A stretch of DNA of 31,418 bases, from contig PEUI01000314.1 in assembly GCA_002785585.1 (NCBI GenBank), positions 1-31,418 on the forward strand, given 5' to 3'. This document shows, in pieces, positions 11,691-30,912 of the stretch. A model generated the notes under the pieces. It was not told where the DNA came from. It was given only the letters and a program-made list of their open reading frames with translations, and did no database searches. The first letter of the stretch is position 1. Each line of letters starts with the position of its first letter. Source of the DNA: Lysobacterales bacterium CG02_land_8_20_14_3_00_62_12 (GTDB lineage Bacteria > Pseudomonadota > Gammaproteobacteria > Xanthomonadales > Ahniellaceae). Made by a program: the position numbers and the translations under genes.

Positions 11691-11720
11691 GAGGTTCAAC
11701 CCAGGGCTGTGACCGGCGCC

Positions 11721-11726
11721 ATTCTA
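11721..11726 (-). promoter_or_regulatory. Possible -10 element (TAGAAT) of the glmS promoter
   Basis: TAGAAT 30 nt upstream of the ATG. No convincing -35. Confidence 0.3.
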
Positions 11727-14248: not shown

Positions 14249-14370
14249 GCGTTCGCATGATGCCCGCAGGCATCGTGCGCGAGACCGAACGCACGCGCAG
14301 GGAGGCGCGGGCTGGCGCCCAGCACCATGGATGGTTCGGTGCCGCTTCTGCGACAATCTGCCATTACGCC

Positions 14371-14446
14371 GGGCCTATAGCACAACGGTTAGTGCAGCAG
14401 ACTCATAATCTGTCGGTTCCAGGTTCGAGTCCTGGTGGGCCCACCA
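14371..14446 (+). tRNA. ileX: tRNA-Ile2 (anticodon CAU, lysidine-modified type), 76 nt with encoded CCA
   Basis: Folds as a cloverleaf: acceptor GGGCCTA/TGGGCCC, D stem GCAC/GTGC, anticodon stem GCAGA/TCTGT with loop CTCATAA, T arm CCAGG-TTCGAGT-CCTGG, A73, CCA. The G1-C72 pair and the lack of three anticodon-stem GC pairs exclude fMet. The position after rpoD fits ileX. Ile versus elongator Met is an inference. Confidence 0.88.
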
Positions 14447-14456
14447 ATCCGCATCC

Positions 14457-14485
14457 GGAACTTTGCCCCAATAGTTAAACTCTCA
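14457..14485 (+). promoter_or_regulatory. sigmaE (RpoE/AlgU)-type promoter for dsbC: GGAACTT-N17-TCTCA
   Basis: -35 GGAACTT at 14457-14463 and -10 TCTCA at 14481-14485, 45 nt before the dsbC ATG. dsbC is a known sigmaE regulon member in E. coli. Confidence 0.62.
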
Positions 14486-14530
14486 AGCCCACCGCCCAGC
14501 CGGTGGCTGACCCCTACCCGAGGATTTCCG

Positions 14531-15262
14531 ATGCAAAAGCTTGCCCTGGCCGCACTGACGGTTGTTCTATCCAACGCCGCGCTGGCCGATGCCGCCGGCG
14601 AGCAGAAGGTGCGTGATGCGATCAAGTCGATGGTGCCAACGGCCAACATTGAAACCATCGCCGATTCGGCATTGCCCGGGTTTTTCGAGGTGGTGATCAG
14701 CGGCAACGTGCTTTACGCCAGCGCCGATGGCAAGTATTTGGTGCAGGGTCGCGTCTACGATGTAGCGCTGAAGCGCGACCTCACCGAGGGCAAAGAGGCC
14801 GGCCTGCGCAAGGGCAGCGTCGACAAGATCGGCGCCGACAAGCGGATCGTCTTTGCGGCGCGCAATCCCAAGCACCGCATCACCGTTTTCACCGATATCG
14901 ATTGCGGCTATTGCCGCAAGCTGCACCAGGAAATTGCCCAGTACAACGACCTCGGGATCAGCGTCGAGTACTTGTTCTTTCCGCGCGCCGGACTCGGTTC
15001 GCCGTCGTTTGATAAAGCGGTAACGGTGTGGTGCTCGGCGGATCGCAACCAGGCGTTGACCGATGCCAAAGCCGGCGTCGTCATCAAGCCAATCACTTGC
15101 AACAACCCGGTCACCGAGACGTTCATGCTCGGTCAGCGCGTCGGCGTCACCGGCACGCCCAGCATTGTTGCCGCCGATGGCACGCTGATTGGTGGCTACA
15201 TGCCGCCGCCGACCTTGCTGCAACGGCTGGAAGCCATTCAATCGACCGCCAAAGCGCTCTGA
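14531..15262 (+). CDS. dsbC: Periplasmic disulfide isomerase DsbC, about 243 aa
   Basis: Signal peptide MQKLALAALTVVLSNAALA, dimerisation domain, TVFTDIDCGYCRKLH active site, GVTGTP cis-Pro loop. SD GAGGA. Confidence 0.93.
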   Translation: MQKLALAALTVVLSNAALADAAGEQKVRDAIKSMVPTANIETIADSALPGFFEVVISGNVLYASADGKYLVQGRVYDVALKRDLTEGKEAGLRKGSVDKIGADKRIVFAARNPKHRITVFTDIDCGYCRKLHQEIAQYNDLGISVEYLFFPRAGLGSPSFDKAVTVWCSADRNQALTDAKAGVVIKPITCNNPVTETFMLGQRVGVTGTPSIVAADGTLIGGYMPPPTLLQRLEAIQSTAKAL

Positions 15263-15301
15263 TCGGCCAGCGCGAGTGGTGCTGCGTCGGCGCGGTTGGT
15301 T

Positions 15302-15329
15302 TTGGCCGACGCCGCGATGCCGCTATGCT
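15302..15329 (+). promoter_or_regulatory. Possible sigma70 promoter of purL (TTGGCC-N16-TATGCT)
   Basis: Hexamers at 15302-15307 and 15324-15329. An 8-bp inverted repeat GCGTCGGC/GCCGACGC (15284-15312) overlaps the -35. Confidence 0.3.
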
Positions 15330-15361
15330 CGCCCGCCTCATCTGAACCGGTAGATCCACCG

Positions 15362-18300
15362 ATGCTGCTGCTTGCGGGACATGAACACCGTTCGGCGTTT
15401 CGGCGTGAGCGGCTCGATCAAGGATTGCGCGCGGTTGTCGCCGATCTGCGGCTGGCTCAGGCGAGCAATTTTTTTGTCGTCAAGGCGGCCTCGGTAGTGA
15501 TTGATGGTGCGCGTCTCGCCAGCGTGCTGGATGCCGATACCGATGCCCCGGACGAGGTCGTCGATAGCCTCTGGGTGGTTCCCCGGATCGGCACCTTGTC
15601 GCCCTGGGCCAGCAAGGCCTTGGAGCTGTTGCGGGCGGCCGGTTTGGCCGTAGCCAGCATCGAGCAGGGCTGGCGTTATGTGGTGCCGGGGTTTTCTGCG
15701 TTGACCGCGGCGGTTAGGGCGCAGGTGCTTGCCGTGCTGCACGATCCGATGACGCAGTCGGTGTTGATGCAACGCCGTGAGCTGGCCGGGATATTCCAGG
15801 TGCAGTCACCGGCCGCGTTGCAAATAATCAGCCTCGGCGCCGAGCCGCAGCAGCAGCTTGCCGCCGCCAACCGGCAGCTTGGGTTGGCGCTCAGCGACGA
15901 CGAAATCGACTATCTCGCCGACTGCTATCAGCGCCTCGGCCGCGATCCCAGCGACGCCGAACTGATGATGTTTGCGCAGGCCAATTCCGAGCACTGCCGG
16001 CACAAGGTGTTCAATGCCAATTGGGTGATCGATGGCGCCCTCGCCGAGCGATCCCTGTTTGCCATGATCAAGACCACGCACCAGCGGCAGCCGATCGGCA
16101 CGCTGTCGGCCTACCACGACAACGCCGCGGTGATCGGTACCACGGCGGTGGCGCGTTTCTATGCCAGCGCCGCAGATCGTCAGTGGCGCGCATGCGCCGA
16201 GCCGGTCGCCATCGCCATCAAGTGCGAGACCCACAACCACCCGACCGCGATCGCGCCGTTTGCCGGTGCCAGTACCGGCAGCGGTGGCGAGATTCGCGAC
16301 GAAGGCGCGACCGGACGTGGCGCCAAGCCAAAGGCGGGGCTGACCGGCTTTACCGTGTCGCATCTGCGCATTCCCGGCTTGCCCCGGCCGTGGGAGGCGG
16401 CGCGCGAATTGCCGCCGCGCATGGCCAGCGCTTTCACCATCATGCGTGATGCGCCGCTGGGCGCGGCCGCGTTCAACAATGAATTCGGCCGCCCTGCCTT
16501 GTGCGGCTATTTTCGAGCTTTTGAACACCGCCAGGGCGCGCTCATTCGCGGTTACGACAAGCCGATCATGCTGGCCGGTGGTTTGGGCAATCTGCATCCG
16601 GATCAGGTGCAGAAACAGAAACTCCAGCAGGGCGATGCGATCATCGTGCTGGGCGGCCCGGCGATGCTGATCGGCCTCGGTGGCGGCGCGGCGTCGTCGC
16701 TGGCATCGGGAGACTCCAGCGCAGCGCTGGATTTTGCTTCGGTGCAACGCGACAACCCGGAGATGGAGCGGCGCTGCCAGGAAGTGATCGACCGCTGCTC
16801 GGCACTTCGCGCCGACAATCCGATCGTCAGCGTGCACGATGTCGGCGCTGGCGGACTGGCCAATGCGATCCCGGAACTGCTCAACGATTCCGCCGTCGGC
16901 GGGGTGATCGATTTGCGCGCGATTCCCAACGATGCGCCGGGCATGAGCCCGATGCAAATCTGGTGCAACGAGTCGCAGGAGCGTTACGTTGTTGGACTCC
17001 GGCCGCAGGATCTGCCGCGGTTCCTGGCCATCTGTCGGCGCGAACGCTGCCCGTGCGCGGTGGTTGGTCGGGCCACCCAGACAGCGCAGCTTGTGGTCGC
17101 TGATGCCCGGCTCGGCGGCAACCCGGTCGACTTGCCGATGGCCGTGCTGTTTGGCAAAGCAACGTCGCTGCAGCGCAACGCCGAACGCCTGCCGGTGGGT
17201 TCGGTTGCGCTCGCGATCGACACCAGCATCGATCACGCCCTGCGCCGCGTACTCTGCCATCCGAGCGTCGGCAGCAAGAGTTTCTTGATCAGCATCGGCG
17301 ATCGCAGCGTCGGTGGTTTGTGTGCGCGCGATCAGATGGTCGGCGCCTGGCAAACGCCGGTGGCCGATTGCGCGCTTACCCTGAGTGATTTTTCCGGATT
17401 TACTGGCGAAGCGATGGCGGTCGGTGAGCGCAGCCCGCTGGCGCTGCTGGACGCGGCTGCTTCGGCGCGCATGGCGGTAGCCGAGGCGCTGTTGAATATT
17501 GCGGCGGCGCCGATCAGCCGCCGCGAAGACATCAAACTCTCTGCCAATTGGATGGCGGCGGTGAATCATCCCGGCGAAGGCGCGGCGTTGTTCGATGCGG
17601 TGCGTGCCCTCGCCATGGAGTCGTGCCCGGCGCTCCATCTGAGCATTCCGGTTGGCAAAGATTCGCTCTCCATGCAAGCGGCTTGGCCGACACCGGCCGG
17701 CGTCCAGCGCGTGGTTTCGCCGTTGTCGTTGGTGGTGTCGGCGTTTGCACCGGTGGCCGACGTGCGTCGTGCGCTGACCCCGGAACTGCGCCTGGATGCG
17801 GGCCCGAGCCGGATCGTGCTGATCGATTTTGGCGGCGGCAAAAATCGTCTCGGTGGCAGCATTCTCGCGCAGTGCTTTGGGCAACTTGGCGAGCACGCCC
17901 CCGATCTGGATGATGCGGCCGCGCTGGCGGCTGGGTTCGATACCGTGCAACAACTCAATCGCGATGATCGCCTGCTCGCCTATCACGATCGCTCCGATGG
18001 TGGTCTGCTCGTGGCCTTGCTGGAAATGGCTTTCGCGGCGCGCTGCGGACTGGATATCGACCTGGGTACGACGCCAGAACAATCGCTCGCGGCGCTGTTC
18101 AACGAAGAACTGGGGGCGCTGATTCAAGTCCGGGAAGCGGATCTGGAAATCGTCCAGACCGCGTTTGCCGAGGCCGGATTGGCGGCCTGCTGGCGGCCGT
18201 TGGCGACACCGCGCGCGGACTCGAGCGACGTGCGTTTGCGCGACGCCAGTGGTGCCACCCTGGTTTGGTCGCTGGCGGAACTGCTCGCGCTCTGGCAGCA

Positions 18301-19216
18301 GACTTCGCACGCCATGCAGCGCCTGCGCGACCACCCCGATTGTGCCGATGAAGAGCGCGCCAGTGTCGTCACCACCGGCGCGCACGCGCTGATGCCGGTG
18401 GTGGGCTTCGATCTCGCGGAAAACGTAGCCGCACCGTTTATTGGCCGGGGTGCGCGGCCGCTGATCGCGATCCTGCGCGAGCAGGGCGTCAATGGCCAGG
18501 TGGAAATGGCGGCGGCTTTTGTGCGCGCCGGCTTTGGCGCCATCGACGTACACATGAGCGATCTGCTGTCCGGTGAAGAAACCCTGGCGCGCTTCGCCGG
18601 ATTGGCCGCCTGTGGCGGTTTTTCATACGGGGATGTGCTCGGTGCTGGCCGTGGTTGGGCCACTTCCATCCTCCACCACGGCAACTTGGCGACGCAGTTT
18701 CAAGCCTTTTTCCATGACCCGAACAAGTTTGCCCTGGGGGTTTGCAACGGCTGCCAGATGCTGGCCGAGATCAAGCAACTGATTCCCGGCGCCGAACCGT
18801 GGCCGCGGTTCAAACGCAATCGCTCCGAGCAGTTTGAAGCCCGGCTCAGCTTGGTCGAAGTGCTCGATTCGCCGTCGATCTGGTTTCGAGGCATGGCCGG
18901 ATCGCGCTTGCCGGTGGTGGTTTCGCACGGCGAAGGCCGGGTCGATTTCAGTACCAGCGGCGATGTTGGGCAGGCGTTGGCGACCCTGCGCTACGTCACC
19001 GCCGCCGGCGCGGTTGCCGAAACCTATCCAGCCAATCCCAACGGTTCGCCCGCAGGCTTGACCGGTTTTACCAATGCGGATGGCCGCATCGCGTTGTTGA
19101 TGCCACACCCGGAGCGCGTTCACCGCTCGGTGCAGTTAAGCTGGCGGCCGCGCCACTGGCCGGATGACTCGCCGTGGATGCGCCTTTTCCAGAATGCCCG
19201 AGCCTGGCTGCAATGA
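15362..19216 (+). CDS. purL: Phosphoribosylformylglycinamidine synthase (large single-chain PurL), about 1284 aa
   Basis: PRIGTLSPWASKA, MFAQANSEHCRHK, KCETHNHPTAI, GSGGEIRDEG, HDVGAGG, HDRSDGG, GGFSYGDVLGAG, GVCNGCQM, LMPHPER. Start at 15362 is the most likely one. Confidence 0.97.
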   Translation: MLLLAGHEHRSAFRRERLDQGLRAVVADLRLAQASNFFVVKAASVVIDGARLASVLDADTDAPDEVVDSLWVVPRIGTLSPWASKALELLRAAGLAVASIEQGWRYVVPGFSALTAAVRAQVLAVLHDPMTQSVLMQRRELAGIFQVQSPAALQIISLGAEPQQQLAAANRQLGLALSDDEIDYLADCYQRLGRDPSDAELMMFAQANSEHCRHKVFNANWVIDGALAERSLFAMIKTTHQRQPIGTLSAYHDNAAVIGTTAVARFYASAADRQWRACAEPVAIAIKCETHNHPTAIAPFAGASTGSGGEIRDEGATGRGAKPKAGLTGFTVSHLRIPGLPRPWEAARELPPRMASAFTIMRDAPLGAAAFNNEFGRPALCGYFRAFEHRQGALIRGYDKPIMLAGGLGNLHPDQVQKQKLQQGDAIIVLGGPAMLIGLGGGAASSLASGDSSAALDFASVQRDNPEMERRCQEVIDRCSALRADNPIVSVHDVGAGGLANAIPELLNDSAVGGVIDLRAIPNDAPGMSPMQIWCNESQERYVVGLRPQDLPRFLAICRRERCPCAVVGRATQTAQLVVADARLGGNPVDLPMAVLFGKATSLQRNAERLPVGSVALAIDTSIDHALRRVLCHPSVGSKSFLISIGDRSVGGLCARDQMVGAWQTPVADCALTLSDFSGFTGEAMAVGERSPLALLDAAASARMAVAEALLNIAAAPISRREDIKLSANWMAAVNHPGEGAALFDAVRALAMESCPALHLSIPVGKDSLSMQAAWPTPAGVQRVVSPLSLVVSAFAPVADVRRALTPELRLDAGPSRIVLIDFGGGKNRLGGSILAQCFGQLGEHAPDLDDAAALAAGFDTVQQLNRDDRLLAYHDRSDGGLLVALLEMAFAARCGLDIDLGTTPEQSLAALFNEELGALIQVREADLEIVQTAFAEAGLAACWRPLATPRADSSDVRLRDASGATLVWSLAELLALWQQTSHAMQRLRDHPDCADEERASVVTTGAHALMPVVGFDLAENVAAPFIGRGARPLIAILREQGVNGQVEMAAAFVRAGFGAIDVHMSDLLSGEETLARFAGLAACGGFSYGDVLGAGRGWATSILHHGNLATQFQAFFHDPNKFALGVCNGCQMLAEIKQLIPGAEPWPRFKRNRSEQFEARLSLVEVLDSPSIWFRGMAGSRLPVVVSHGEGRVDFSTSGDVGQALATLRYVTAAGAVAETYPANPNGSPAGLTGFTNADGRIALLMPHPERVHRSVQLSWRPRHWPDDSPWMRLFQNARAWLQ

Positions 19217-19929
19217 GCAACGACCCGAACCCCGCCTCTGCATCCGCCGAAGTCGCCGAGCCGATTTCGCTCAAGGCGTTTTTTCTGCTCGGCGTCCTCT
19301 GGCTGCCGCTTGCGGTATTTGTCTGGTTTGGCCTGCGCAGCGTCGTGGTCTATCCGATCACCCGGCTGGCGCGGATTTTTCTCGACTGGTGGCTGCCCGG
19401 CGTGATCCACGATTCCAGCCAGTACGTACACTATTTCAAGTTCACTGCGGTGGTGCCGTTGCCCCCGGGCATGGTCGCCCAGGCCGGTCAGATTCCGGCG
19501 GTCGATGGCAGCTCCAACGCGTTGCTGTTCACCTATGGATTGGCGGTGTTCTGGGGTTTGGTGTTCGCCACGCCAGACACCGGCGACTACTCTTTGCTAC
19601 GGCGCTTGCGCACGGCGCTGCTCGGTTGGTTGCTGTTGATGCCGATCCAGGCGCTCTCCATCTGTGCCGATGTCGCCAAGCAATTGTTCATTGATCTGGG
19701 TCCGGCCGGAATGCAAATGGCGACCGAACATCGGGTCAATCTGGAATGGGTGGCGTATGCCTATCAGGCGGCGACGCTGATCGTTCCGATGATTTCGGCG
19801 CTGCTGGTATGGGCGCTGTTTCATCGCCGTTTTCTGGAACACATCCGCTTCGATGCCGCGCCGACAGCGGAACCAGTCGCCGTGATCGAAGGTCGCAAGC
19901 AGCCACCGCACGAGCCAGAAAACCCATGA
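19213..19929 (+). CDS. Multi-pass membrane protein resembling exosortase-H-associated membrane proteins (exosortase-like fold, catalytic residues absent), about 238 aa
   Basis: About 5-6 hydrophobic helices flanking one ~50-aa soluble beta-rich loop. Pattern WLPL...NALLFTYGLAVFWGLVFATP...LLGWLLLMP...AYAYQAATLIVP. ATGA overlaps with both the purL stop and the gspE start. The family call is by recall; no HMM search was run. Confidence 0.6.
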   Translation: MSNDPNPASASAEVAEPISLKAFFLLGVLWLPLAVFVWFGLRSVVVYPITRLARIFLDWWLPGVIHDSSQYVHYFKFTAVVPLPPGMVAQAGQIPAVDGSSNALLFTYGLAVFWGLVFATPDTGDYSLLRRLRTALLGWLLLMPIQALSICADVAKQLFIDLGPAGMQMATEHRVNLEWVAYAYQAATLIVPMISALLVWALFHRRFLEHIRFDAAPTAEPVAVIEGRKQPPHEPENP

Positions 19930-21671
19930 CCGAAGCCGAACTCGCTGTTGCCGATGCCTTGAGCGCGCCGCTCGACGAAGTCAGCTTGGAAGACCGCATC
20001 GCGACCTTCTTGATCGCCCGCGGCCGCCTCAAGGAAGCTGACCTGTTGCGGGCTCGGCGTTTGCAGGAAGAATCGCCCAACGCCGATTTCATTTCGCTGA
20101 TGGTGCGGTTGGGTCTGGTCTCGGAACGCGACGCCGCTGAAGCGCTGAGTGAAGTGCTGCAGATGCCCTTGTTGTCGGCGCGGGATTGCCCGGATGCGCC
20201 GCCAGCGAACGTGCAATTGTCGATCCGTTTTCTCAAGCAGTACCACGTCGTGCCGATCGGTGAAGACGAACAGGAATTGCACCTGCTGGTGGCCGAACCG
20301 CAAGACCACTACCCACTCGACGCGGTGCGTTTGGCGGTCGGCAAACCGGTCACCGTGCGCGTGGGTATCCGGTCCGAGATCGACGACCTGATCGAGCGTT
20401 ATTACGGCAGCGGCCGTTCGGCGATGGGTACGATCGTCGAAAATCTTTCCGAAGACGCCACCCGCAGCGAAGACGACGTTGAGCACCTGCGCGATCTGGC
20501 CTCGGAAGCGCCGGTGATCCGGCTGGTCAATCTGGTGATCCAGCGCGCCGTCGAAGCGCGCGCCTCCGATATCCACATCGAGCCGTTCGAGACCCGCCTC
20601 AAAGTGCGTTATCGCATCGACGGCGTGCTCGAAGAAGTGGAATCGCCGCCGGCCAATTCGACCGCAGCGGTGATCTCGCGCATCAAGATCATGGCCAAGC
20701 TCAACATCGCCGAACGCCGCCTGCCGCAGGATGGCCGCATCATGTTGCGGGTGCAGGGCAAAGAACTGGATCTGCGCGTGAGCACGGTGCCCACTTCGTT
20801 CGGCGAATCGGTGGTCATGCGCATTCTTGATCGTGAATCGGTGGTGCTGGACTTTCACACGCTCGGCTTTACCGACGAGTTTCTGCCGCAGTTCATGGAA
20901 GTCTTGAGCATGCCGCACGGCATCATGCTGGTGACCGGCCCGACCGGCTCCGGCAAGACCACCACTTTGTACACCGCGCTCAGCAAGATCAACACCGCGG
21001 ATGTCAAAATCATCACCGTCGAAGACCCGGTCGAATACCAGATCGAGGGGGTCAATCAGATTCAGGTCAAGCCGCAGATCGGGCTGGATTTCTCGCACGC
21101 CCTGCGCTCGATCGTGCGGCAGGATCCAGACATCATCATGATCGGCGAAATGCGTGATCTGGAAACCGCCAAGATCGCCATTCAATCGGCGCTTACCGGC
21201 CATCTGGTGCTGTCCACCCTGCACACCAACAACGCCGCTGGCGGCATCACCCGTTTGCTCGATATGGGCGTGGAAGATTATCTGCTCAGTTCCACCGTCA
21301 ATGGCATTCTCGGGCAGCGCCTGGTGCGGCGCGTCGAGGTCGGTCATCGTCAGGCTTACGCCGCCTTGCCGGAAGTCGTGCAGCAGTTTGAGCTGGAGCG
21401 CTATACCGATCAGCGACCGGTGCAGTTGTATAAACCCGGGCCTTCGGAATTGACCCCCACTGGCTATTTGGGCCGCACCACGATCATGGAGTTTTTGCGG
21501 ATGACCGATCCGCTGCGGCGCTTGGTCATGAAGCACGCCGACATGGGGGTGATCGAACAAGCCGCGCGCGAAGAAGGCATGCGCACCATGTACGAAGATG
21601 GTTTGGTCAAAGCCCTGGCCGGGGTCACCACGCTGGAAGAAATCCTGCGTGTCACCCAGCAGGACGGCTGA
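19926..21671 (+). CDS. gspE: T2SS ATPase GspE (XpsE type, long N-terminal domain), about 581 aa
   Basis: RASDIHIEP, IAERRLPQDGR, Walker A GPTGSGKTT, TVEDPVEY, RQDPDIIMIGEMRD, TGHLVLSTLHTN. Confidence 0.96.
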   Translation: MTEAELAVADALSAPLDEVSLEDRIATFLIARGRLKEADLLRARRLQEESPNADFISLMVRLGLVSERDAAEALSEVLQMPLLSARDCPDAPPANVQLSIRFLKQYHVVPIGEDEQELHLLVAEPQDHYPLDAVRLAVGKPVTVRVGIRSEIDDLIERYYGSGRSAMGTIVENLSEDATRSEDDVEHLRDLASEAPVIRLVNLVIQRAVEARASDIHIEPFETRLKVRYRIDGVLEEVESPPANSTAAVISRIKIMAKLNIAERRLPQDGRIMLRVQGKELDLRVSTVPTSFGESVVMRILDRESVVLDFHTLGFTDEFLPQFMEVLSMPHGIMLVTGPTGSGKTTTLYTALSKINTADVKIITVEDPVEYQIEGVNQIQVKPQIGLDFSHALRSIVRQDPDIIMIGEMRDLETAKIAIQSALTGHLVLSTLHTNNAAGGITRLLDMGVEDYLLSSTVNGILGQRLVRRVEVGHRQAYAALPEVVQQFELERYTDQRPVQLYKPGPSELTPTGYLGRTTIMEFLRMTDPLRRLVMKHADMGVIEQAAREEGMRTMYEDGLVKALAGVTTLEEILRVTQQDG

Positions 21672-21676
21672 TCGGC

Positions 21677-22891
21677 ATGGCCCTGTATCGATACAAAGCG
21701 GTGGCGCCGACCGGTGAGACCCTGGTCGGCGAAATGGAAGCGCTATCCCGCAACGAAGTGGTCGTGCGCCTGCAGGATGCCGGCAACATTCCGATCGAAG
21801 CCGCCGAGGCGGGGTCTGGCGGTGGCCGTGCGCTTGCCGCGCTGTTCAAGCGCTCGGCCCTGGGCGGCGATCAACTGGCCCAATTCACCAGCCAACTGGG
21901 CACCTTGCTCGGTGCCGGTCAGCCGCTGGATCGGGCCTTGCACACGCTGTCGGAAAATGCCGAAACCGATACTGCCCGCGCCCTGATCGAGCGCATCAAA
22001 GATGGCGTGCGCAGCGGCACGCCGCTATCCACTACGCTGGAGCAGCAGCACGGCGTGTTCTCGCGGCTCTACGTCAACATGGTGCGCGCCGGAGAAGTCT
22101 CCGGCTCGCTCACCGATACCTTGAAGCGCCTCGCGGAATATCTGGAACGCTCGCGGCAGTTGCGTGGCACGGTAATCAACGCGCTGATCTACCCGGCCAT
22201 ACTGATCGGCTTGGTGACTTTGACCCTGTTCGTGCTGATGATCTTTGTCATCCCCAATTTTCAGCCGGTGTTTGATGAACTCGGCAGTCGCCTGCCGATG
22301 ATTACCCGGGTCGTGCTATTCGTTGCCGGGGCGCTGCAAAACTTCTGGTGGTTGATGGTGGTCGTTGGCGTGGCGGCGCTGGTGTACTTGCGCAACCAGT
22401 ACGCGCAACCCGAGCCGCGCCGCCAGATCGAGCTGTTCATGCTGGCGCGTGGCGGCATCGGCCCGCTGATTGCCAAGATCGAAACCGCACGCCTGGCGCG
22501 GACCCTCGGCACCCTGGTGCAAAATGGGGTGCCGCTGCTGACCGCGCTCACCATCGGCAAAAATGTCATGGGGAACACGGTGCTGGCCGACGCGGTCGAA
22601 AAGGCCAGCAACGAAGTCAAAACCGGTTCCGGTCTGGCCTATGCACTGGGACTCAGCAAACGTTTCCCCAAATTGGCGTTGTCGATGATCGCCGTCGGTG
22701 AGGAATCTGGCGAACTCGATGGCATGTTGAACAAGGTCGCCGAAACTTTCGACCAGGAAGTCAAGAACACAGTAGAACGCTTGCTGGCGGCGTTGGTGCC
22801 GGTGGTTACTGCCATCATGGCGGTGATGGTCGGCATGATTATGCTGGCGATCGTTCTTCCCCTGCTCGAAATGAGCTCGCTAGCGGAGTGA
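21677..22891 (+). CDS. gspF: T2SS inner-membrane platform protein GspF
   Basis: LGTLLGAGQPL, MVRAGEVSGSL, LIYPAIL, GEESGELDGML, three TM segments. Confidence 0.95.
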   Translation: MALYRYKAVAPTGETLVGEMEALSRNEVVVRLQDAGNIPIEAAEAGSGGGRALAALFKRSALGGDQLAQFTSQLGTLLGAGQPLDRALHTLSENAETDTARALIERIKDGVRSGTPLSTTLEQQHGVFSRLYVNMVRAGEVSGSLTDTLKRLAEYLERSRQLRGTVINALIYPAILIGLVTLTLFVLMIFVIPNFQPVFDELGSRLPMITRVVLFVAGALQNFWWLMVVVGVAALVYLRNQYAQPEPRRQIELFMLARGGIGPLIAKIETARLARTLGTLVQNGVPLLTALTIGKNVMGNTVLADAVEKASNEVKTGSGLAYALGLSKRFPKLALSMIAVGEESGELDGMLNKVAETFDQEVKNTVERLLAALVPVVTAIMAVMVGMIMLAIVLPLLEMSSLAE

Positions 22892-22895
22892 TGTC

Positions 22896-23321
22896 ATGAA
22901 ATATGTGTCGCGTTTTCACGGTTCCCGGGTCGGTGGCTTCAGCCTGATCGAAATGCTGGCGGTGATTGCCTTGATCGGTCTGATCGCCAGCGTGGTGGCG
23001 CCCAACGTGCTGGGCAAATTGGCCGGTGGCAAGTTCAAGGCGACGCGGGCCAAAGTGGCCGCCACCAGTTCCAAGGTCGAGCTCTACGTGCTCGATGTCG
23101 GCAGCCTGCCGGAGCGCATGGAGGACCTGGTCAGCAAACCCGGCAATGCCGAAAACTGGAACGGCCCCTACGCCAAGGAATCGGATCTGAAAGACGCCTG
23201 GGAAATGCCGTTCGTGCTGACCGTGCCGGGCGCCCATGGCGAATTCGATCTGGTCTCGCTCGGTGCTGACAAGCAGCCGGGCGGGGAGGGCAACAACAAA
23301 GACATCGGTAACTGGGAATAG
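22896..23321 (+). CDS. gspG: T2SS major pseudopilin GspG
   Basis: G|FSLIEM prepilin site, WNGPY, DAWEMPF, Ca-binding loop SLGADKQPGGEG. Confidence 0.95.
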   Translation: MKYVSRFHGSRVGGFSLIEMLAVIALIGLIASVVAPNVLGKLAGGKFKATRAKVAATSSKVELYVLDVGSLPERMEDLVSKPGNAENWNGPYAKESDLKDAWEMPFVLTVPGAHGEFDLVSLGADKQPGGEGNNKDIGNWE

Positions 23322-23346
23322 ATCTCCCCGGTTGGAGACCTGAGCC

Positions 23347-23793
23347 ATGCGCCCGCGTTCCCGTGGATTTACCTTGGTCGAGCTGCTGGTCGTGCTGATG
23401 CTGATGGGGCTGATCGCCGGCATGGCGGCGTTCTCGTTCGGTAGCAATATGCAGGGCGCCAAGACCCGGGCGGCGGTGCGCGATCTGACGGCGGCGCTGC
23501 GTTACACCCGTGGCCAGGCGATCATTGGTCATCAGCCACAAAGTCTCGAGGTGGACGTGGAAGCGCGCACTTACCAGGCGCCGAAGCGGCCGTTGATCGT
23601 CCTGCCCAAAGGTCTGGACATGAAACTGCTGACCGCAGCGCGTGAACGCACCGGTGATACCAAGGGCTTGATCCGGTTTTTTCCGGACGGCAGCTCCAGT
23701 GGCGGCCGCGTCACCTTGATCCGTGACCGCCACGAGTGGCGCGTCGATATTGCCTGGTTGACCGGCGAAGTGCGCATGGAAGAAGGGCAATGA
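23347..23793 (+). CDS. gspH: T2SS minor pseudopilin GspH
   Basis: RG|FTLVEL, IRFFPDGSSSGG, WLTG. Position after gspG. Confidence 0.92.
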   Translation: MRPRSRGFTLVELLVVLMLMGLIAGMAAFSFGSNMQGAKTRAAVRDLTAALRYTRGQAIIGHQPQSLEVDVEARTYQAPKRPLIVLPKGLDMKLLTAARERTGDTKGLIRFFPDGSSSGGRVTLIRDRHEWRVDIAWLTGEVRMEEGQ

Positions 23794-24302
23794 CCAGTCA
23801 GCGCTCGCCCGCGCCGTTGCGCGCGGTTGGCGGTACCGAATTCGCGACGCCAGCGGCGTTCCCACCATTCGCGCTGTGGCGCGCGTCTGGCCGGGCCCCT
23901 GGCCGTCAGCGCGGGTTTTCGCTGCTCGAAATGTTGGCGGCTTTTCTGGTCTTCGCCATCGGCTTTGGGGTAATGATGGAGATGACCTCAAGCTCGCTGC
24001 GCAATGCGCGCCACGGTGCCGAGCTGACCGAAGCGGCGTTGTGGGCGCAATCGAAGATGGACCTGGCCGGTATCGACGAACCGATCCAGCCGGGCAGCGC
24101 CCGCGGCGAGTTCAACCGCAAATATCGCTGGGAAATGAACGTCACCGAATGGCAACCGCCGGGCGACGCTTCGCCGCTGGTCGATCTCAACGCCCTCGAT
24201 ATGTATCAAATCGAATTGGTCGTGCATTGGGGTGATCGTGACCACCAGCGCACGGCGCGCTTCGTCACCCTGCGCGCCATTCAACCGGGGCCGCCGACAT
24301 GA
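23790..24302 (+). CDS. gspI: T2SS minor pseudopilin GspI (long predicted leader), about 170 aa
   Basis: RG|FSLLEMLAAF prepilin site. ATG 23790 overlaps the gspH stop (ATGA). Confidence 0.88.
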   Translation: MTSQRSPAPLRAVGGTEFATPAAFPPFALWRASGRAPGRQRGFSLLEMLAAFLVFAIGFGVMMEMTSSSLRNARHGAELTEAALWAQSKMDLAGIDEPIQPGSARGEFNRKYRWEMNVTEWQPPGDASPLVDLNALDMYQIELVVHWGDRDHQRTARFVTLRAIQPGPPT

Positions 24303-24994
24303 GCCGCCGCCGATACACCGGCGGATTTACCCTGGTCGAGTTGCTGTTGACCACCTTGCTGCTGGCGTTGTTGATGGCCGGTGCCTTTGCCGGTATCAGC
24401 ACCGCCAATAAAGCGGTAATCAGTGGCGAAGCCTTGATTGACCGCACCAATCGAGTGCGCGTGGCGCAGGAGTTTTTGCGTCGGCAATTGCGCAACGCGC
24501 TCGCGCTCAGCTACCCGGTCGATTCGACCAACGGCGAAACCCGCATGTTCGAAGGCGACGCCGACACCCTGCGTTTTGTGTCGACGATGCCGGGCTACCT
24601 GAGCCACGGCGGCGCTTATGTGCAAAGTTTGTCGATCAAGTCCGGGCGCGGGGGGCGCGAATTGTTGTTCGCTTTTCAATTGCTCAATGGCTTCGGCGAC
24701 GAGCACGCCAACCGGCACAGCGAAGAAGCTGATCGCGAACCCGAGCTGCTGATCGAAAACATCCGCAGCGGCGGCTTCGAATACCGCGGTATCGACGACA
24801 CCGGCAAGATGTCCGACTGGACCGAAAAATGGGAAAACCCTTTGCAGTTGCCGGCCGCGGTGCGCTTGAAATTGACCATGGATGCGGATTCACGCTACGT
24901 CTGGCCGGACATCGAAGTGGCGGTGCTCGCCAACGCCTCGGCGGCCGCCGCCAGCGATCCCTTCCTGGCGCCATTTCGCGGCGCGGAGCGTTGA
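24299..24994 (+). CDS. gspJ: T2SS minor pseudopilin GspJ
   Basis: GG|FTLVEL, W..PLQLPAAVRL. ATGA overlap with gspI. Confidence 0.9.
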   Translation: MSRRRYTGGFTLVELLLTTLLLALLMAGAFAGISTANKAVISGEALIDRTNRVRVAQEFLRRQLRNALALSYPVDSTNGETRMFEGDADTLRFVSTMPGYLSHGGAYVQSLSIKSGRGGRELLFAFQLLNGFGDEHANRHSEEADREPELLIENIRSGGFEYRGIDDTGKMSDWTEKWENPLQLPAAVRLKLTMDADSRYVWPDIEVAVLANASAAAASDPFLAPFRGAER

Positions 24995-24995
24995 T

Positions 24996-25895
24996 ATGTG
25001 CCGACCACCGATCGCGCAGCGTGGCATCGCCTTCATTGTCGTCATTTGGGTGATGGTGCTGTTGACCGTCGTCCTCAGCGGCTTCGTCGTAGTGGCGCGG
25101 ACGGAAGCGCTGCAATCGCGGTTTCTGCTCGACTCGGCGCAAGCCCGCTACGCCGCCGAGGCCGGCATCAGTCGCGTCGTTTGGGAACTTCACAACACCG
25201 ATCCACTCACTATGTGGGTGCCCGACGGGCGCGCCTACGACATGGATTTTGCCGGAGCCAAGGTGAGCATCGAAGTACACGACGAATCCGGCAAGGTCGA
25301 TATCAACGCCGCCGATCTGGAAACCCTCAAGCGTATGTTTACGGCGGTTGCGGTGGATGCCACCGAGGCCGAACAGTTGGCGGCGGCGGTCGTCGATTGG
25401 CGCGATGTCGATGATTTGCTCACGGTCAATGGCGCCGAGGACGGCGAATACGAATCCGTTGGCCTGGCCTACGGTGCCGCCGACGCGCCGTTTTCGACGA
25501 TTGGCGAGTTGCAGCAGGTGTTGGGCATGAACTACGAGATCTTCGAGAAGCTGCAGAACGACATCACGATTTACGGTGGTGTGGGTCGGCCGAATGCGGC
25601 GTTTGCCTCCGCGCTGGGCTTGCAGACCATCGACGGCATTGACCCGCAACAGGCCGAGCAGCTACTGAACGCTCGCCGCCAATTTCGCCCCGGCGATGCC
25701 GGCAGTGTCGGCGTGACCTTGCCGGATGGCACGCCGTTGCTGTCCGCCGGTGGCAGTGGCACGTATACTGTGCGGTCCAAGGCCACGCTGGCCAACGGGG
25801 CTTGGACCCTGGTGGATGCCACCATCCGCCTCGGCGGAGCCCCCGGCGCCCGGGCTTATTCCATTTTACGCTGGCGCGAAGGGAGCGCCGATTGA
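24996..25895 (+). CDS. gspK: T2SS minor pseudopilin GspK, about 299 aa
   Basis: QRG|IAFIVVIW (no Glu+5, typical of GspK), DESGKVDIN, VVDWRD, FSTIGELQQVLG. Confidence 0.92.
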   Translation: MCRPPIAQRGIAFIVVIWVMVLLTVVLSGFVVVARTEALQSRFLLDSAQARYAAEAGISRVVWELHNTDPLTMWVPDGRAYDMDFAGAKVSIEVHDESGKVDINAADLETLKRMFTAVAVDATEAEQLAAAVVDWRDVDDLLTVNGAEDGEYESVGLAYGAADAPFSTIGELQQVLGMNYEIFEKLQNDITIYGGVGRPNAAFASALGLQTIDGIDPQQAEQLLNARRQFRPGDAGSVGVTLPDGTPLLSAGGSGTYTVRSKATLANGAWTLVDATIRLGGAPGARAYSILRWREGSAD

Positions 25896-27040
25896 TGGCC
25901 ATGAACAAACTTCAGCGTTGGCTGGCGCCGTATCGCACCGCCTACCGCAACAGCGCGCTGCATCGATTCCTGGCCTGGTGGGGCGCGGAGTTGGCACGAC
26001 TGCTGCCGGTAGCGTGGCGCGACTGGTTCATCGAACGCCGGGACGCCGTGCAAGTGATGGCGACCGCCGATGGCTGGAGCGTGACGCGCTTGGGTAGTCT
26101 GCCGATGGCGACCGAATCGGTGGCCACCGACGCCGGTGCCGAAGTCTTGCGCGCCCTCGCCGAACGCATGTTGCAAGCCGGTGAAATCAAAGCCGACCTG
26201 GTGGCCCTGCTGGATGCGGCGCAGGTGCTGGAACGGCGTCTGCCGTTGCCGGCCGCCGCCGAGGAAAATCTGGCCCAGGTGATTGCCTTCGAGCTGGATC
26301 GGCAAACCCCGTTTCGTGCCGATCAGGTGCGCTACGATTTTCGGATCGGCGCCCGCGATGCCATCGCCAGGCAAATTCAAGTGGACATGATGCTGGTGCC
26401 GCGCCCGCTCGCCGAGCAGACGCTGGCGCCACTGACCGCCGCCGGGCTAGCGCTGGATGCGCTCGATGCCGTGGCCGCCGATGGCGCCCGTCGTGGTTTC
26501 AACCTGTTGCCCGCAGAAGCGCGTGCCGAACGGGCCAATGCGGGTGCCCGACTGAACTGGATTTTGGTGGCGGTTGGGCTCGGCCTGCTGTGGCTGGTCA
26601 TGCGCCAGTCGATCGTGGCCCGCGAACAGGCGTTGACCGACCTGCAACAGGCGGTCGACAAAGTGCAAGTCGAAGCCGCCCACACCACCGAGCTCAAGCG
26701 CAAACTGACCGATGCCGTCGATGGCGCCAACTTTCTGGCCGGGCGCAAAAAGCAGCACCCGGTGGCGGTCAATATTCTGCGCGAACTAACGCAGTTGTTG
26801 CCGAAAAACACCGCCCTGGTCCGGCTCTCGGTCAATCGTGGCGAAGTACAGATTCAAGGCAATAGCGACGAGGCCGCGCAGCTCATCGCCATCCTGCAAA
26901 AAGCCCACAGCATCGAAGGCCCGGCCATTCAAGGTGCCATCACGCCCGATGCGCGCACCCGCAAAGAGCAGTTCCTGATCCAGGCCAAAGTTCGCGCCAG
27001 CAGCCCGGAGAGCGCCCATGCAGCTACTGCCAAATCCTGA
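25895..27040 (+). CDS. gspL: T2SS protein GspL (XpsL type), about 381 aa
   Basis: FLAWWGAEL, FELDRQTPF actin-like cytoplasmic domain, one TM segment, PilN-like periplasmic domain. TGATG overlap with gspK. Confidence 0.88.
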   Translation: MAMNKLQRWLAPYRTAYRNSALHRFLAWWGAELARLLPVAWRDWFIERRDAVQVMATADGWSVTRLGSLPMATESVATDAGAEVLRALAERMLQAGEIKADLVALLDAAQVLERRLPLPAAAEENLAQVIAFELDRQTPFRADQVRYDFRIGARDAIARQIQVDMMLVPRPLAEQTLAPLTAAGLALDALDAVAADGARRGFNLLPAEARAERANAGARLNWILVAVGLGLLWLVMRQSIVAREQALTDLQQAVDKVQVEAAHTTELKRKLTDAVDGANFLAGRKKQHPVAVNILRELTQLLPKNTALVRLSVNRGEVQIQGNSDEAAQLIAILQKAHSIEGPAIQGAITPDARTRKEQFLIQAKVRASSPESAHAATAKS

Positions 27041-27665
27041 GCAGGGCCGCTTGCTGGCGGTGGTGCTATTGCTGATCGCCTTGCTGCTTGGCTATTACTT
27101 CAGCGTGCATTGGTGGTTCACCGCGCGCCATTTCGAAGTGGCGGGCGCGATTGCCGACCTGAAGGAACAAGAGTTGCGTTTTCGCAGCATCGCCGCGGGT
27201 CGGCCGATGCTGGAAAAAAAGCTGGCAGAAGTGGCGCAGTACGAATCGAACAATCCGGCATTTCTGCCCGAGGCCGATTTCGATTCGGCGGCGGCCGGTC
27301 TTACCCAGCGGCTGAAAACCATCGTCGCCACCCATGCCACCGATCCGGCGCGTTGCCAGATCATCATGAATCAATACGCCCACAGCAATGATCCCGAGCG
27401 CTTCGAGCGGGTCACCATCAAGGTGCGCCTGCGCTGCGACCTGGAACCGTTTGCCGGCATGCTCTACGACCTGGAGAGCGCCAGCCCGGTGTTGTTCATC
27501 GACGATTTGCAAGTGTTTCGTCAGCAGGGCTACGTGCGGCCAGGGCAGAACAAGATTTCCAGCTATCTGGACATTCGCTTTGACCTGTTTGGCTACATTC
27601 GCAAGCAGATCGAAATCGATGCGAAGACCGGCAAGGTCAAAGTCAAAGCCAAGAATCAACCATGA
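27018..27665 (+). CDS. gspM: T2SS protein GspM (XpsM type)
   Basis: N-terminal TM segment, coiled coil, LYDLESASPVLFIDDL, LDIRFDLFGY. Position after gspL. Confidence 0.85.
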   Translation: MQLLPNPEQGRLLAVVLLLIALLLGYYFSVHWWFTARHFEVAGAIADLKEQELRFRSIAAGRPMLEKKLAEVAQYESNNPAFLPEADFDSAAAGLTQRLKTIVATHATDPARCQIIMNQYAHSNDPERFERVTIKVRLRCDLEPFAGMLYDLESASPVLFIDDLQVFRQQGYVRPGQNKISSYLDIRFDLFGYIRKQIEIDAKTGKVKVKAKNQP

Positions 27666-28438
27666 TCCCGACCAAACGCATCACGATGATTCTGGGTTCG
27701 CTGGTCGCCACTTTGGCTGGCCTGGGTAGCGCCCAACAATTCGGTTTGGGCGACGGCTATACGCTGCTGCCGGCCGATCCCAAGGCAACCAACGCGGGCG
27801 TTGCCCTGGCTCTGGATCGCCAGCCATTCCAGCTCGCGTCCTGGGGGGAATACACCGCCATCCTCGATCATCCAGTGTTCAATGAATCGCGCGAGCCGAC
27901 GCCGGTAGAAGAAAATCTGGCGGGCGAGGGCGCCAACGCCGAGCCGACCGCGCAGCCGATCAACGTTACTCTGACCAGTATCATCATCACCCCGAAGTTG
28001 AAACTGGCGATCGTCCGCGACAACAATTCCGGCAAGTCGCAAGTGGTAAAAATCGGCATGCCGCTGGACGCTGAACAAAACGGCTGGAAGTTGGTCGAAG
28101 TCAGTCCTCGTGCCGCGGTGTTCGAGGGCCAGGGTCTGGGTCGGCAGAATCTGGAGCTGCTGGTCAGTGGTGCCGTGGCGGGTGCGGCGGGTGTGGCACC
28201 GGTAGCGGCGTCGTCGCCCGCCAACGGCTATGGTCGTGCAGACGCCCCAGTCCCCGGTAACCGTGGTCCGCAAACCCCCAATTCAGCGCCGATGAACCCC
28301 CCCGGCGGCGTCGAAAATCCAGCCATCGCGGCCGCCGCCCAGGACCGCACCGAAGAAATCCGCAAGCGCATCGAAGAACGCCGTAAACAACTCCGCGAAG
28401 AAGCCGCGCGCATGCGCACAGAGGAATCCAAGCAGTGA
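27662..28438 (+). CDS. xpsN: XpsN / GspC-equivalent protein (TM, HR domain, Pro-rich linker, C-terminal coiled coil)
   Basis: HPVFNESREP, LTSIIITP..KLAIV, C-terminal EEIRKRIEERRKQLREEA coiled coil in place of a PDZ domain. Lies between gspM and gspD as in Xanthomonas xps. Confidence 0.8.
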   Translation: MIPTKRITMILGSLVATLAGLGSAQQFGLGDGYTLLPADPKATNAGVALALDRQPFQLASWGEYTAILDHPVFNESREPTPVEENLAGEGANAEPTAQPINVTLTSIIITPKLKLAIVRDNNSGKSQVVKIGMPLDAEQNGWKLVEVSPRAAVFEGQGLGRQNLELLVSGAVAGAAGVAPVAASSPANGYGRADAPVPGNRGPQTPNSAPMNPPGGVENPAIAAAAQDRTEEIRKRIEERRKQLREEAARMRTEESKQ

Positions 28439-30912
28439 ACCAGAATCCGACCGTGATGCGCAGCCTCACCGATGCTTTGACCGCCCTGCTGCGCACGCTG
28501 CCCGGGCTATTGCTGTTGGCAGCGGGTTGCGCCAATAGCGGTGGTAGCCGTGAGGCGCTGGCCAGCGCCGAGGCGCCCGCAGCGACCGTGGCACCGGCAG
28601 CGTCCGAAGCTGCGGTCGCCATACCCGCACCAGTAGCTGCCAGCGGTGCAGACCCGGCGACGCCCGTTGCGGAAACCAAAGTGGTCCCGGATGCAACCGC
28701 CGCCGCCGCCGTCCAAGCGGACCCGGCGCCTGCCACAGCAGCACCGGTGGCCGCCAGTGCCGCGCTGGCGCAGCCGTCAGTGGTCAGCACGGCCAATCTT
28801 CCTGCTGCCACCAGTGCCGATGCCATCCAGCCTTCGGTCGTGACCGATGCGGTAACCGTGCGTTCTGCTGCCCATGTCGAACCCGGCACCGCCAAGTTTC
28901 TCAATGAAGACGCCGCCAATCGGCGGCCTGCGGATTCCACCGCTGCGGGTGAAGTGGTATTCAACTTCGAAGCCGAATCGTTGCCCGCCGTCGTCAAAGC
29001 CATCCTCGGCGACTTGCTGCAAGAGAACTACGTCATCGCGCCGGGCTTGGCTGGCCAAGTCACCTTTGCCACCGCCAAACCGATCAGTGCCGATCAGGCG
29101 ATGGGCGTGCTGGAAATGTTGCTGTCCTGGAACAACGCCACCCTGGTCTATCGGGATGGCCGCTACACGGTGTTGCCGGTAGCACAGGCGGTGGCCGGCA
29201 ATCTGGTGCCGCGCACCGGGCCGATCACCACCGCCAAGGGTTACGAAGTGCGTGCGGTGCCGCTCAAGTACATCTCGGCCACCGCCATGCAGGAAGTGTT
29301 GACGCCCTACGCGCGCGCTGGCGCCATCCTCAAAGCCGACAACACCCGCAGCATGATCGTCATCGCCGGCACCCGCGCCGACCTGGGAAATTATTTGCAG
29401 ACGATCGAAACCTTCGATGTCGATTGGTTGGCTGGCATGTCGGTCGGTGTCTATCCGCTGGAGCGCGTGGAAGCCGCGACCGTGGTCCCGGAATTGGAAA
29501 AAATCTTTGGCGAGGGCGGGCCAACGCCGCTGGCGGGCATGTTTCGCTTCATGCCGATCGAACGCATCAATGCCGTCCTGGTGATTACCCCGCAACCGGA
29601 ATACTTAAGCCAGGCCGAATCTTGGCTGGGCCGTCTGGATCGCGGCGGCAGTGAGTCCGGCGCGCAGTTGTTCGTCTACTACGTCAAGAACGTCAAAGCG
29701 GTGGATCTGGGCGACAAACTCAGCGAAGTCTTCGGCAGCGCTGGCAACGCCGGGGCCAGATCTCCCGCCAGTGTCGGTCGGGTGGCGCCCGGGGGCTCGG
29801 TCGAAATCAAGAGCATCAACAGCCAGCAGGGTCGCAAGGACGCCGCCAGCGAAGCCAAGGCCGAATCGCGAGCCTCCTTGCAGCCGAGCTCCAGCGAAGG
29901 CATATCCATCAGCAGCAGCGATGACATTCGCATCACCTCGATCGAAGAAAGCAATGCGCTGATGATCCGCGCCACCCCCGGCCAGTACGAATCCATCCTC
30001 GGGGCGATCAAGCGTCTCGACATCGTGCCGCTGCAAGTCCATATCGAAGCCAAGATTTTGCAAGTCAGCTTGACTGGCGAGTTGTCTTCCGGCGTCCGCT
30101 GGTTCTTCGAAAATGCCACCGGCCTGACTGGCAGCGGCACCAGTGCTGCTGATTTCAACGCCATTCGCCCCAACCGTGGTGTTTGGAACAGCTTCGCGGG
30201 ATCTTTCACCAGCACGGCTGGTCTGGCCTGGACCTTCCTGAAGAACAATCAGGAAGTTTTTATTAGCGCATTGCAATCGGCGGGCAACACCAAAGTGCTG
30301 TCGGCGCCGTCGATCGTGGTGTTGAACAACAAGACCGCCAGCCTCAATTCCGGCACGCAGATTCCGGTCAACAGCACCTCGTTTCAGCCCATCGGCGGTA
30401 CCACCGGGGGTACCACCGGTGGCAACAACTCGTTTTTCAATTCCACCCAGTTCCGCGATACCGGCATCACCCTGGATGTCACCCCACGGGTCAATCCCGG
30501 TGGCTTGGTCTACATGGAAATCCGCGAGGAAAAAAGCGTGCCTGGCGCAGCCAGCAGCGCGGTCAACGGCAACGTGTCGGTGGACAAGAGCACGATTGAA
30601 ACCGAAGTGGCGGTACAAAGCGGTGAAACCGTGGTCTTGGCCGGCCTGATCGAAGACACCAGGACCTCGAGTCGCTCTGGCGTCCCTGGACTGGTCAAGA
30701 TCCCGCTCCTCGGACGGCTGTTTGGCAACAATAGCAACGGCTCCACCCGCAGCGAAATTCTGGTGCTGATCACCCCCACAGTGATCGACAGCTCCGAGTC
30801 TGCCCGCAATCTCACCATCGAATATCAATCCCGCTTCAAAGGCATCCAACCCCTGCTGCATCCACAGCCAGAGCCACAAAAAGGCAAACACAAACCAACC
30901 AGCAAGGAATAG
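28435..30912 (+). CDS. gspD: T2SS secretin GspD (XpsD-type liposecretin), about 825 aa
   Basis: Lipobox LAAG|C (Cys32), N0 domain FNFEAESLPAVVKAILGD, SNALMIRAT, QVHIEAKILQV, KVLSAPS, DTGITLDVTPRV, GVPGLVKIPLLGRLF, RSEILVLITP. The start is GTG 28435 or ATG 28456. Confidence 0.96.
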   Translation: MNQNPTVMRSLTDALTALLRTLPGLLLLAAGCANSGGSREALASAEAPAATVAPAASEAAVAIPAPVAASGADPATPVAETKVVPDATAAAAVQADPAPATAAPVAASAALAQPSVVSTANLPAATSADAIQPSVVTDAVTVRSAAHVEPGTAKFLNEDAANRRPADSTAAGEVVFNFEAESLPAVVKAILGDLLQENYVIAPGLAGQVTFATAKPISADQAMGVLEMLLSWNNATLVYRDGRYTVLPVAQAVAGNLVPRTGPITTAKGYEVRAVPLKYISATAMQEVLTPYARAGAILKADNTRSMIVIAGTRADLGNYLQTIETFDVDWLAGMSVGVYPLERVEAATVVPELEKIFGEGGPTPLAGMFRFMPIERINAVLVITPQPEYLSQAESWLGRLDRGGSESGAQLFVYYVKNVKAVDLGDKLSEVFGSAGNAGARSPASVGRVAPGGSVEIKSINSQQGRKDAASEAKAESRASLQPSSSEGISISSSDDIRITSIEESNALMIRATPGQYESILGAIKRLDIVPLQVHIEAKILQVSLTGELSSGVRWFFENATGLTGSGTSAADFNAIRPNRGVWNSFAGSFTSTAGLAWTFLKNNQEVFISALQSAGNTKVLSAPSIVVLNNKTASLNSGTQIPVNSTSFQPIGGTTGGTTGGNNSFFNSTQFRDTGITLDVTPRVNPGGLVYMEIREEKSVPGAASSAVNGNVSVDKSTIETEVAVQSGETVVLAGLIEDTRTSSRSGVPGLVKIPLLGRLFGNNSNGSTRSEILVLITPTVIDSSESARNLTIEYQSRFKGIQPLLHPQPEPQKGKHKPTSKE

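Follow-up and report, generated by a model that had tools for sequence, protein, structure and literature searches.

C-terminal sorting systems in which a tripartite C-terminal signal is processed at the inner membrane, after which the protein is carried outward by the type II secretion system (T2SS), have been described for rhombosortase/GlyGly-CTERM and myxosortase/MYXO-CTERM (bioRxiv 10.1101/2023.06.07.544157; PMC11980579). T2SS-dependent surface display is established for GlyGly-CTERM and MYXO-CTERM proteins, and the T2SS co-occurs with Synerg-CTERM (bioRxiv 10.1101/2023.06.07.544157). Exosortases are widespread and their mechanism is almost unknown; no exosortase structure was found in the PDB searches made here. 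The literature search found no paper on exosortase H (XrtH), on its partner protein family or on a pseudo-exosortase, and IPTL-CTERM was found once, in an S-layer protein of Methylomirabilis lanthanidiphila (PMC8671808). The gene studied here lies between purL and the T2SS gene gspE in a 31,418-nucleotide stretch (the window) of the Lysobacterales contig PEUI01000314.1 and encodes a membrane protein of 238 amino acids (aa), referred to below as the XrtH-associated protein. With a probability of roughly 0.7 it is a non-catalytic, exosortase-derived subunit of XrtH.

The protein matched the NCBIfam family NF041730, "exosortase H-associated membrane protein", along the entire model (positions 1-184 of 184; 124.5 bits, cut-off 35), and 0 of 14 control genomes matched this family. 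An earlier reading of the same DNA, made from the letters alone (hereafter the original prediction), had named this family correctly. A newer Pfam family, PF28117, is carried by all close homologues in a large protein collection, one of which, from a Lysobacterales metagenome-assembled genome (MAG), bears the name exosortase H-associated membrane protein; the Pfam release scanned here is older than PF28117 and gave no family at E up to 0.1. Searched with a profile, 1.84 billion representatives yielded 836 clusters at E up to 0.001, and the best 150 of the 836 are all stand-alone proteins of 149-289 aa. The window protein is like the NF041730/PF28117 family in its full-length match to the hidden Markov model (HMM), its size, its predicted fold and its co-occurrence with XrtH. 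It differs in gene position, which is usually directly after xrtH in the class sample described below, whereas throughout Lysobacterales the gene is found between purL and gspE, not linked to xrtH.

An AlphaFold2 model of the protein, built on an alignment of 49 sequences (pLDDT 89.1, pTM 0.81), has helices at residues 20-40 and 42-60, a three-stranded sheet at 65-71, 74-80 and 96-102, and further helices at 103-119, 128-161 and 164-214. The order of elements, i.e., two helices, a three-stranded sheet, a helix, a long helix and C-terminal helices, is common to this model and to that of the genome's own XrtH (pLDDT 95.1), and it bears out the earlier proposal of a transmembrane segment and a beta-rich loop followed by an exosortase-like core. 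In a Foldseek search of the AFDB clusters, where as in all fold comparisons below except that with the PDB every matched structure is itself a prediction, unnamed relatives came first and were followed by nearly nothing but exosortase/archaeosortase models (E 3e-4 to 0.1, template modelling (TM) scores 0.40-0.53), among them "Exosortase H" and "Archaeosortase A", with a probability of 1.00 to several clusters. The ESM Atlas returned the protein's own family (TM 0.74/0.76) and an exosortase cluster (TM 0.50/0.68 over 146 residues, root-mean-square deviation 3.2). In the reverse direction, the XrtH model found the cluster V4LA15, the top relative of the window protein (E 2.7e-4, TM 0.58/0.53). 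The hhalign comparison of the two profiles gave a colinear match of 115 columns with a score of 25.4, against 15.9 for the reversed profile and at most 20.6 in 22 column shuffles, and picked out a motif common to both proteins, a helix ending in proline together with a basic patch. These reciprocal matches between models support a shared exosortase-like fold, and common descent of the XrtH-associated protein and the exosortases is likely. A PDB-wide structural search with the model gave generic helical bundles only (best Z 5.5, under the tool's noise level for helical proteins), i.e., this search found no solved relative of the protein. Compared with XrtH (TIGR04177) and the superfamily TIGR04178/PF09721, the protein is about 50 residues longer, its sheet is extended and further helices are present at the C-terminus.

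The two proteins also differ in the catalytic residues. Cys72, Asn110, Arg113 and His143 were present in 38 of 38 sequences of the XrtH alignment, whereas in the 49-sequence alignment of the XrtH-associated family Cys is found in at most 12 sequences of any one column and His in at most 23. Because neither residue is conserved, an exosortase-type cysteine-protease/transpeptidase mechanism is excluded for this protein. By element order the position of the exosortase Cys falls on S101/N102, just past the third strand, in agreement with where the original prediction had placed the lost Cys. Its further statement that Cys, Arg and His had all been replaced is firm for Cys and His but not for Arg: residue 156 in the long helix, a Lys in the window protein, is Lys or Arg in 45 of the 49 family members and may stand in the place of the exosortase Arg. 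Other polar residues conserved within membrane helices are N102 (38/49), Y108 (46/49) and Q185 (46/49). As judged from the alignment, the label "dead exosortase-like" is supported.

The source genome encodes one XrtH (TIGR04177, 167 bits; contig C278, 30942-31436, minus strand) with Cys72, Arg113 and His143 intact. The genes for XrtH and for the XrtH-associated protein lie on different contigs and are thus not neighbours; in complete genomes of the order they are 0.06 to 3 Mb apart. Adjacency to xrtH is customary for this family in other orders and does not belong to the HMM definition. In spite of the distance, the two genes occur together. Among 41 relatives both were found in 39 and neither in two. 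Of 151 evenly sampled genomes of the order, 121 carried each gene, with both in 119, neither in 28 and a mismatch in four, three of which are only 70-87% complete; presence was mixed in two families of the order (1/18 and 6/17), and there identical genomes were positive for both genes. A sample of 300 genomes of the class, in which XrtH was counted above its cut-off, gave the same picture outside the order: the XrtH-associated protein occurred in 11 of the 12 XrtH genomes, the exception being 62% complete, and was never found there without XrtH. In most of these XrtH genomes the gene directly follows xrtH on the same strand, often with overlapping frames.

Complex prediction for XrtH and the XrtH-associated protein with both alignments gave 0.62 (0.66, 0.62 and 0.62 in the runs), compared with 0.01 for the best control; this score is a model confidence and not a measurement. 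Of 80 solved complexes 58 reached this mark, as did two of 110 mismatched pairs; the calibration holds only roughly, since alignments made for the present analysis were used. On the XrtH side the predicted interface comprises residues 70-80 and 144-166, flanking Cys72 and His143, and on the partner side residues 104-112 and 182-212, which hold the most conserved residues Y108, Q185, L189 and P192. As modelled, the live enzyme and its dead counterpart appear to pair pseudo-symmetrically, each as one copy of a common fold.

Accessory proteins are also known for the XrtA/XrtB exosortases: their EpsI-type proteins are encoded beside or fused with the exosortase and co-occur with it. EpsI is not known to be an exosortase paralogue. 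The window protein is comparable to EpsI as an accessory protein that co-occurs with an exosortase and, in other members of its family, is encoded beside it, and differs from EpsI in being a multi-pass membrane protein with an exosortase fold. By analogy only, it also resembles the iRhoms (PMC5436907), membrane pseudoproteases which have kept the fold, lost the catalytic residues and act through protein contact. The iRhoms, however, have an unrelated fold, are eukaryotic and regulate a non-homologous protease, whereas the predicted partner here is an active paralogue. If the proposal is true, it would provide a bacterial example of a membrane pseudoprotease that regulates its active twin. Three features appear to be new, and none was found in the literature searched: the protein as a dead paralogue with an exosortase fold, its predicted heterodimer with XrtH at the active site, and the move of its gene to the head of the xps cluster throughout the order (see below).

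Under the preferred reading, the XrtH-associated family would be a degenerate paralogue of the exosortase fold that has lost the catalytic Cys and His and that packs against XrtH beside the active site as a non-catalytic subunit. XrtH and its partner together would process the few IPTL-CTERM-type surface proteins, and the partner might capture substrates, present the acceptor or have a regulatory role. Should XrtH depend on a dead paralogue for its second subunit, exosortases would gain a concrete and testable architecture. As for the substrates, the IPTL-CTERM HMM gave sub-threshold matches only over the genome (16-18 bits, cut-off 20.5) and candidates were therefore called by tail architecture. 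These scans yielded about five open reading frames (ORFs) ending in [IV]P-x-[LMN], a hydrophobic helix and an Arg/Lys cluster, i.e., IPTL-CTERM-like tails, which start with IPSL (contig C58), IPTL (C344), VPAM (C73) and VPVN (C177 and C249). The bodies of the candidates carry DUF11, SdrD-B, GEVED and DUF4394 domains, which are typical of surface proteins. The genome thus encodes both an exosortase and candidate substrates, the absence of which would have counted against the original prediction.

Several points weigh against this reading, in addition to the nature of the complex score. The protein matched no exosortase model of Pfam or NCBIfam, NF041730 being its sole NCBIfam family. The TM-scores to exosortases are about 0.5, which is not high, and the hhalign values (P 0.001-0.005, probability 7-21%) correspond to weak homology at the sequence level. 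With regard to a link to the T2SS (see below), GspE shows only a small excess among XrtH genomes: it was above its cut-off in 11 of the 12 outside the order, compared with 192 of the 300 genomes of the class sample, a background tally which takes in one unpublished genome (G078). Lastly, the conservation of K/R156, N102, Y108 and Q185 might reflect another kind of chemistry and not the lack of one.

The last point leads to an alternative in which the protein is a live enzyme that uses these four residues for a second sorting step, e.g., the attachment of a lipid or glycan acceptor after XrtH cleavage. Besides their conservation within membrane helices, some gene neighbourhoods are in its favour. 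Outside the order, partner genes unlinked from xrtH sit among GT2 glycosyltransferases and an epimerase, and in 16 of 30 loci of the order a homologue of the SDR epimerase-like type stands directly downstream of xrtH, in the slot held elsewhere by the partner gene; such neighbours may mean that the sorting reaction involves a sugar or lipid moiety. No enzyme family of Pfam or NCBIfam was matched, the best fold match in the PDB did not rise above background, and Y108 and Q185 lie on the predicted XrtH interface, which would be enough to explain their conservation. A live enzyme is considered improbable, and a non-catalytic subunit of XrtH is preferred.

The position of the gene raises the further possibility of a connection between XrtH and the T2SS. 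The features of the window are as follows, all on the plus strand:

15296..19216, plus strand: purL, encoding FGAM (formylglycinamidine ribonucleotide) synthase; 1306 codons; Pfam GATase_5, FGAR-AT and AIRS_C
19213..19929, plus strand: gene for the XrtH-associated protein, a putative pseudo-exosortase without catalytic Cys/His; 238 aa; NF041730, AlphaFold2 model and fold matches
19213..19216, plus strand: ATGA overlap of the purL stop and the start of the XrtH-associated gene, read from the sequence
19926..19929, plus strand: ATGA overlap of the stop of the XrtH-associated gene and the gspE start, read from the sequence
19926..21671, plus strand: gspE/xpsE, T2SS ATPase; TIGR02533 675.5 bits (cut-off 630); Pfam T2SSE
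21677..22891, plus strand: gspF/xpsF, inner-membrane platform protein; Pfam T2SSF
22896..30912, plus strand: remaining xps-type T2SS genes, i.e., gspG, minor pseudopilins, gspK, gspL, gspM, one ORF and the gspD secretin; Pfam T2SSG, N_methyl, T2SSJ, T2SSK_1st, PilN/PilM_2, T2SSM_b and Secretin

The frame at 19213-19929 has a stop-free translation of 238 aa. Its ATG at 19213 overlaps the purL TGA (19214-19216), and its own TGA (19927-19929) overlaps the ATG at 19926 with which the 581-aa GspE begins, so that the coordinates and both ATGA overlaps of the original prediction proved exact. An in-frame ATG for gspE is also present upstream at 19746; the N-termini of GspE in relatives align from 19926 instead. 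The window gspF scored 496.5 bits with XpsF and 378.3 bits with GspF of NCBIfam, strong values that are nevertheless under the curated cut-offs of 650 and 424. Judging by these family matches, the genes from gspE onward are a complete xps-type T2SS cluster. A sigma-70 promoter scan of 14200-23500 gave no site and the terminator-like matches within the ORF of the XrtH-associated protein (19302-19317) are weak, with 5-bp stems, and transcript boundaries therefore cannot be placed from these scans. From its position, the gene is probably co-transcribed and translationally coupled with the Xps genes.

The arrangement is general in the order. In 30 of 30 loci the gene followed purL, and in 28 of 30 gspE was directly next; named carriers are Dokdonella, Rudaea, Tahibacter, Chiayiivirga flava DSM 24163 and MAGs of Rhodanobacteraceae. 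The arrangement is kept in 11 of the 12 sampled families of the order, and the gspE link claimed earlier is conserved in this sense. In the 28 loci the stop of the XrtH-associated gene and the gspE start overlap in 12, are separated by gaps of 3-15 nucleotides (nt) in ten and by gaps of 35-292 nt in six. Between purL and the start of the gene, overlaps or gaps of 1-15 nt were present in most related loci. In the maximum-likelihood tree the proteins of purL-gspE context formed one side of a branch with support 93/93. This topology agrees with a single relocation at the origin of the order: in the Lysobacterales ancestor the gene would have left the slot after xrtH and settled between purL and gspE, with vertical inheritance since then.

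The original prediction had called the gene the first of the T2SS operon and had proposed a dedicated adaptor which bridges XrtH and Xps, takes or holds the processed IPTL-CTERM proteins and passes them to the T2SS. The former is not established, as the coupling to purL is equally tight. For the latter the idea has a reasonable prior, because other C-terminal sorting systems are tied to the T2SS (bioRxiv 10.1101/2023.06.07.544157), and a sorting component encoded at a T2SS locus fits the logic of rhombosortase and myxosortase; those are other enzyme families, and for XrtH the link to the T2SS comes from gene order alone. The conserved, translationally coupled place directly before gspE across the order and the predicted binding to XrtH beside the active site are also in its favour. 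However, the family works without nearby T2SS genes in other Gammaproteobacteria, and Xps is retained without the gene in Xanthomonadaceae-type genomes. The statement that standard xps operons have no such gene is correct for the latter genomes only, since 121 of 151 genomes of the order carry it. Xps-type gspE without the XrtH-associated gene was found in one sampled genome of a mostly gene-less family and in the named Xanthomonadaceae genera. The protein itself matched no T2SS family in Pfam or NCBIfam, and this, together with the occurrence of Xps without the gene, does not place it among the core or accessory components of the T2SS. In presence/absence profiling the gene tracked XrtH rather than the T2SS. 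The XrtH-less genomes lost the gene and kept purL-gspE and the T2SS, and hence the gene follows XrtH and Xps does not need it. A dedicated adaptor is accordingly regarded as unlikely.

The place before gspE could instead be neutral frozen synteny, with the protein purely an XrtH accessory, and this explanation comes close to an even chance. The purL gene, which is unrelated to secretion, is coupled by the same kind of 4-nt overlap or by gaps of a few bases, and because it is packed as tightly as gspE, gene order favours secretion no more than purine synthesis. Moreover, purL and gspE have stayed adjacent where the gene was cleanly deleted, in Arenimonas, Pseudoxanthomonas, Luteimonas, Silanimonas and a Xanthomonas MAG; no gene remnant was found in the purL-gspE gaps of genomes without the gene, and all five deletion genomes checked are also without XrtH. 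An inserted protease gene of about 3 kb separates the XrtH-associated gene from gspE in two genomes, both of the same family. Outside the order, no T2SS gene was found within about 9 kb of the pairs of xrtH and partner gene, the neighbours of which are unrelated housekeeping genes or, twice, a likely substrate. These observations favour the neutral explanation. On the other hand, purely neutral retention has to account for an arrangement kept in nearly all sampled families with frames that overlap or nearly abut in 22 of 28 loci, for the ties of the GlyGly-CTERM, MYXO-CTERM and Synerg-CTERM systems to the T2SS (bioRxiv 10.1101/2023.06.07.544157), and for the GspE count in XrtH genomes outside the order. 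An enrichment of the T2SS among XrtH genomes was dropped as support, as the excess is small and the counts ignore phylogeny.

The position thus fits, and does not prove, that XrtH-sorted proteins reach the surface through the T2SS. A heterodimeric sortase of XrtH and its dead paralogue which feeds the Xps T2SS, with IPTL-CTERM proteins as cargo, is doubtful on the present evidence; if true, it would be the first exosortase-to-T2SS surface-display route, written into the operon structure of a whole bacterial order. The placement beside gspE and the clean deletion where XrtH was lost amount to a natural experiment, and cultured strains, e.g., Chiayiivirga flava DSM 24163, could show whether exosortase-sorted proteins exit via the T2SS as rhombosortase and myxosortase substrates do.

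Several minor observations concern the neighbourhood of gspE and xrtH. Genes for subtilisin-like S8 proteases adjoin gspE in two separate lineages (L016:5-1408, plus strand, genome G028; L081:13-1239, plus strand, genome G036); in one lineage the protease gene sits between the partner gene and gspE, and in the other it replaces purL and the partner gene upstream of gspE. These genes may be T2SS cargo genes. In the source genome xrtH is followed, with overlapping frames, by a gene for a 283-aa NAD-dependent epimerase/dehydratase-like protein (L085:6054-6905, minus strand, contig C278). Divergent from xrtH stands a gene for a sigma-54 activator with an FHA domain, the best NCBIfam match of which, a PEP-CTERM-box response regulator, is below cut-off, and then two genes for FG-GAP repeat proteins (L085:7511-9352, 9567-11234 and 11128-13308 for the three, all plus strand). 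The FG-GAP proteins were considered as substrates and dropped, because both lack a sorting tail at the C-terminus. One genome of the class (L092, G275:C5:10000-29000, at about 7570-10430) has two tandem pairs of xrtH and partner gene with a 194-aa ORF between them, followed by a murG-like GT28 gene.

Variation was also seen within the family of the XrtH-associated protein. An XrtH-partner fusion, which was sought as a Rosetta-stone argument, was not present among the best 150 of the 836 clusters. The AFDB entry A0A1I4WDC1 (350 aa, "Exosortase H, IPTLxxWG-CTERM-specific") was matched both by the XrtH model (TM 0.89 by query) and by the partner model and is a possible fusion of this kind. A cluster from Acidobacteriota (ESM Atlas; AFDB A0A0S7XAE2) combines the XrtH-associated domain with SEC-C, a zinc motif that also forms the C-terminus of SecA, and this hints that some members of the family touch the Sec pathway. 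In one genus of the order (G026, G037, G345, G354, G363, G371, G379 and G387) the NF041730 match is split into about model positions 1-51 and 54-184 within a single open frame, suggesting that the loop following the second helix carries an insertion.

Within the T2SS cluster of the window, a 258-aa ORF at 27662-28438 on the plus strand, in the interval between gspM and gspD, had no Pfam match, and its position would suit an XpsN/GspC-like component. The source genome contains two GspE matches at E <1e-180 and may hold a second T2SS-type ATPase elsewhere.

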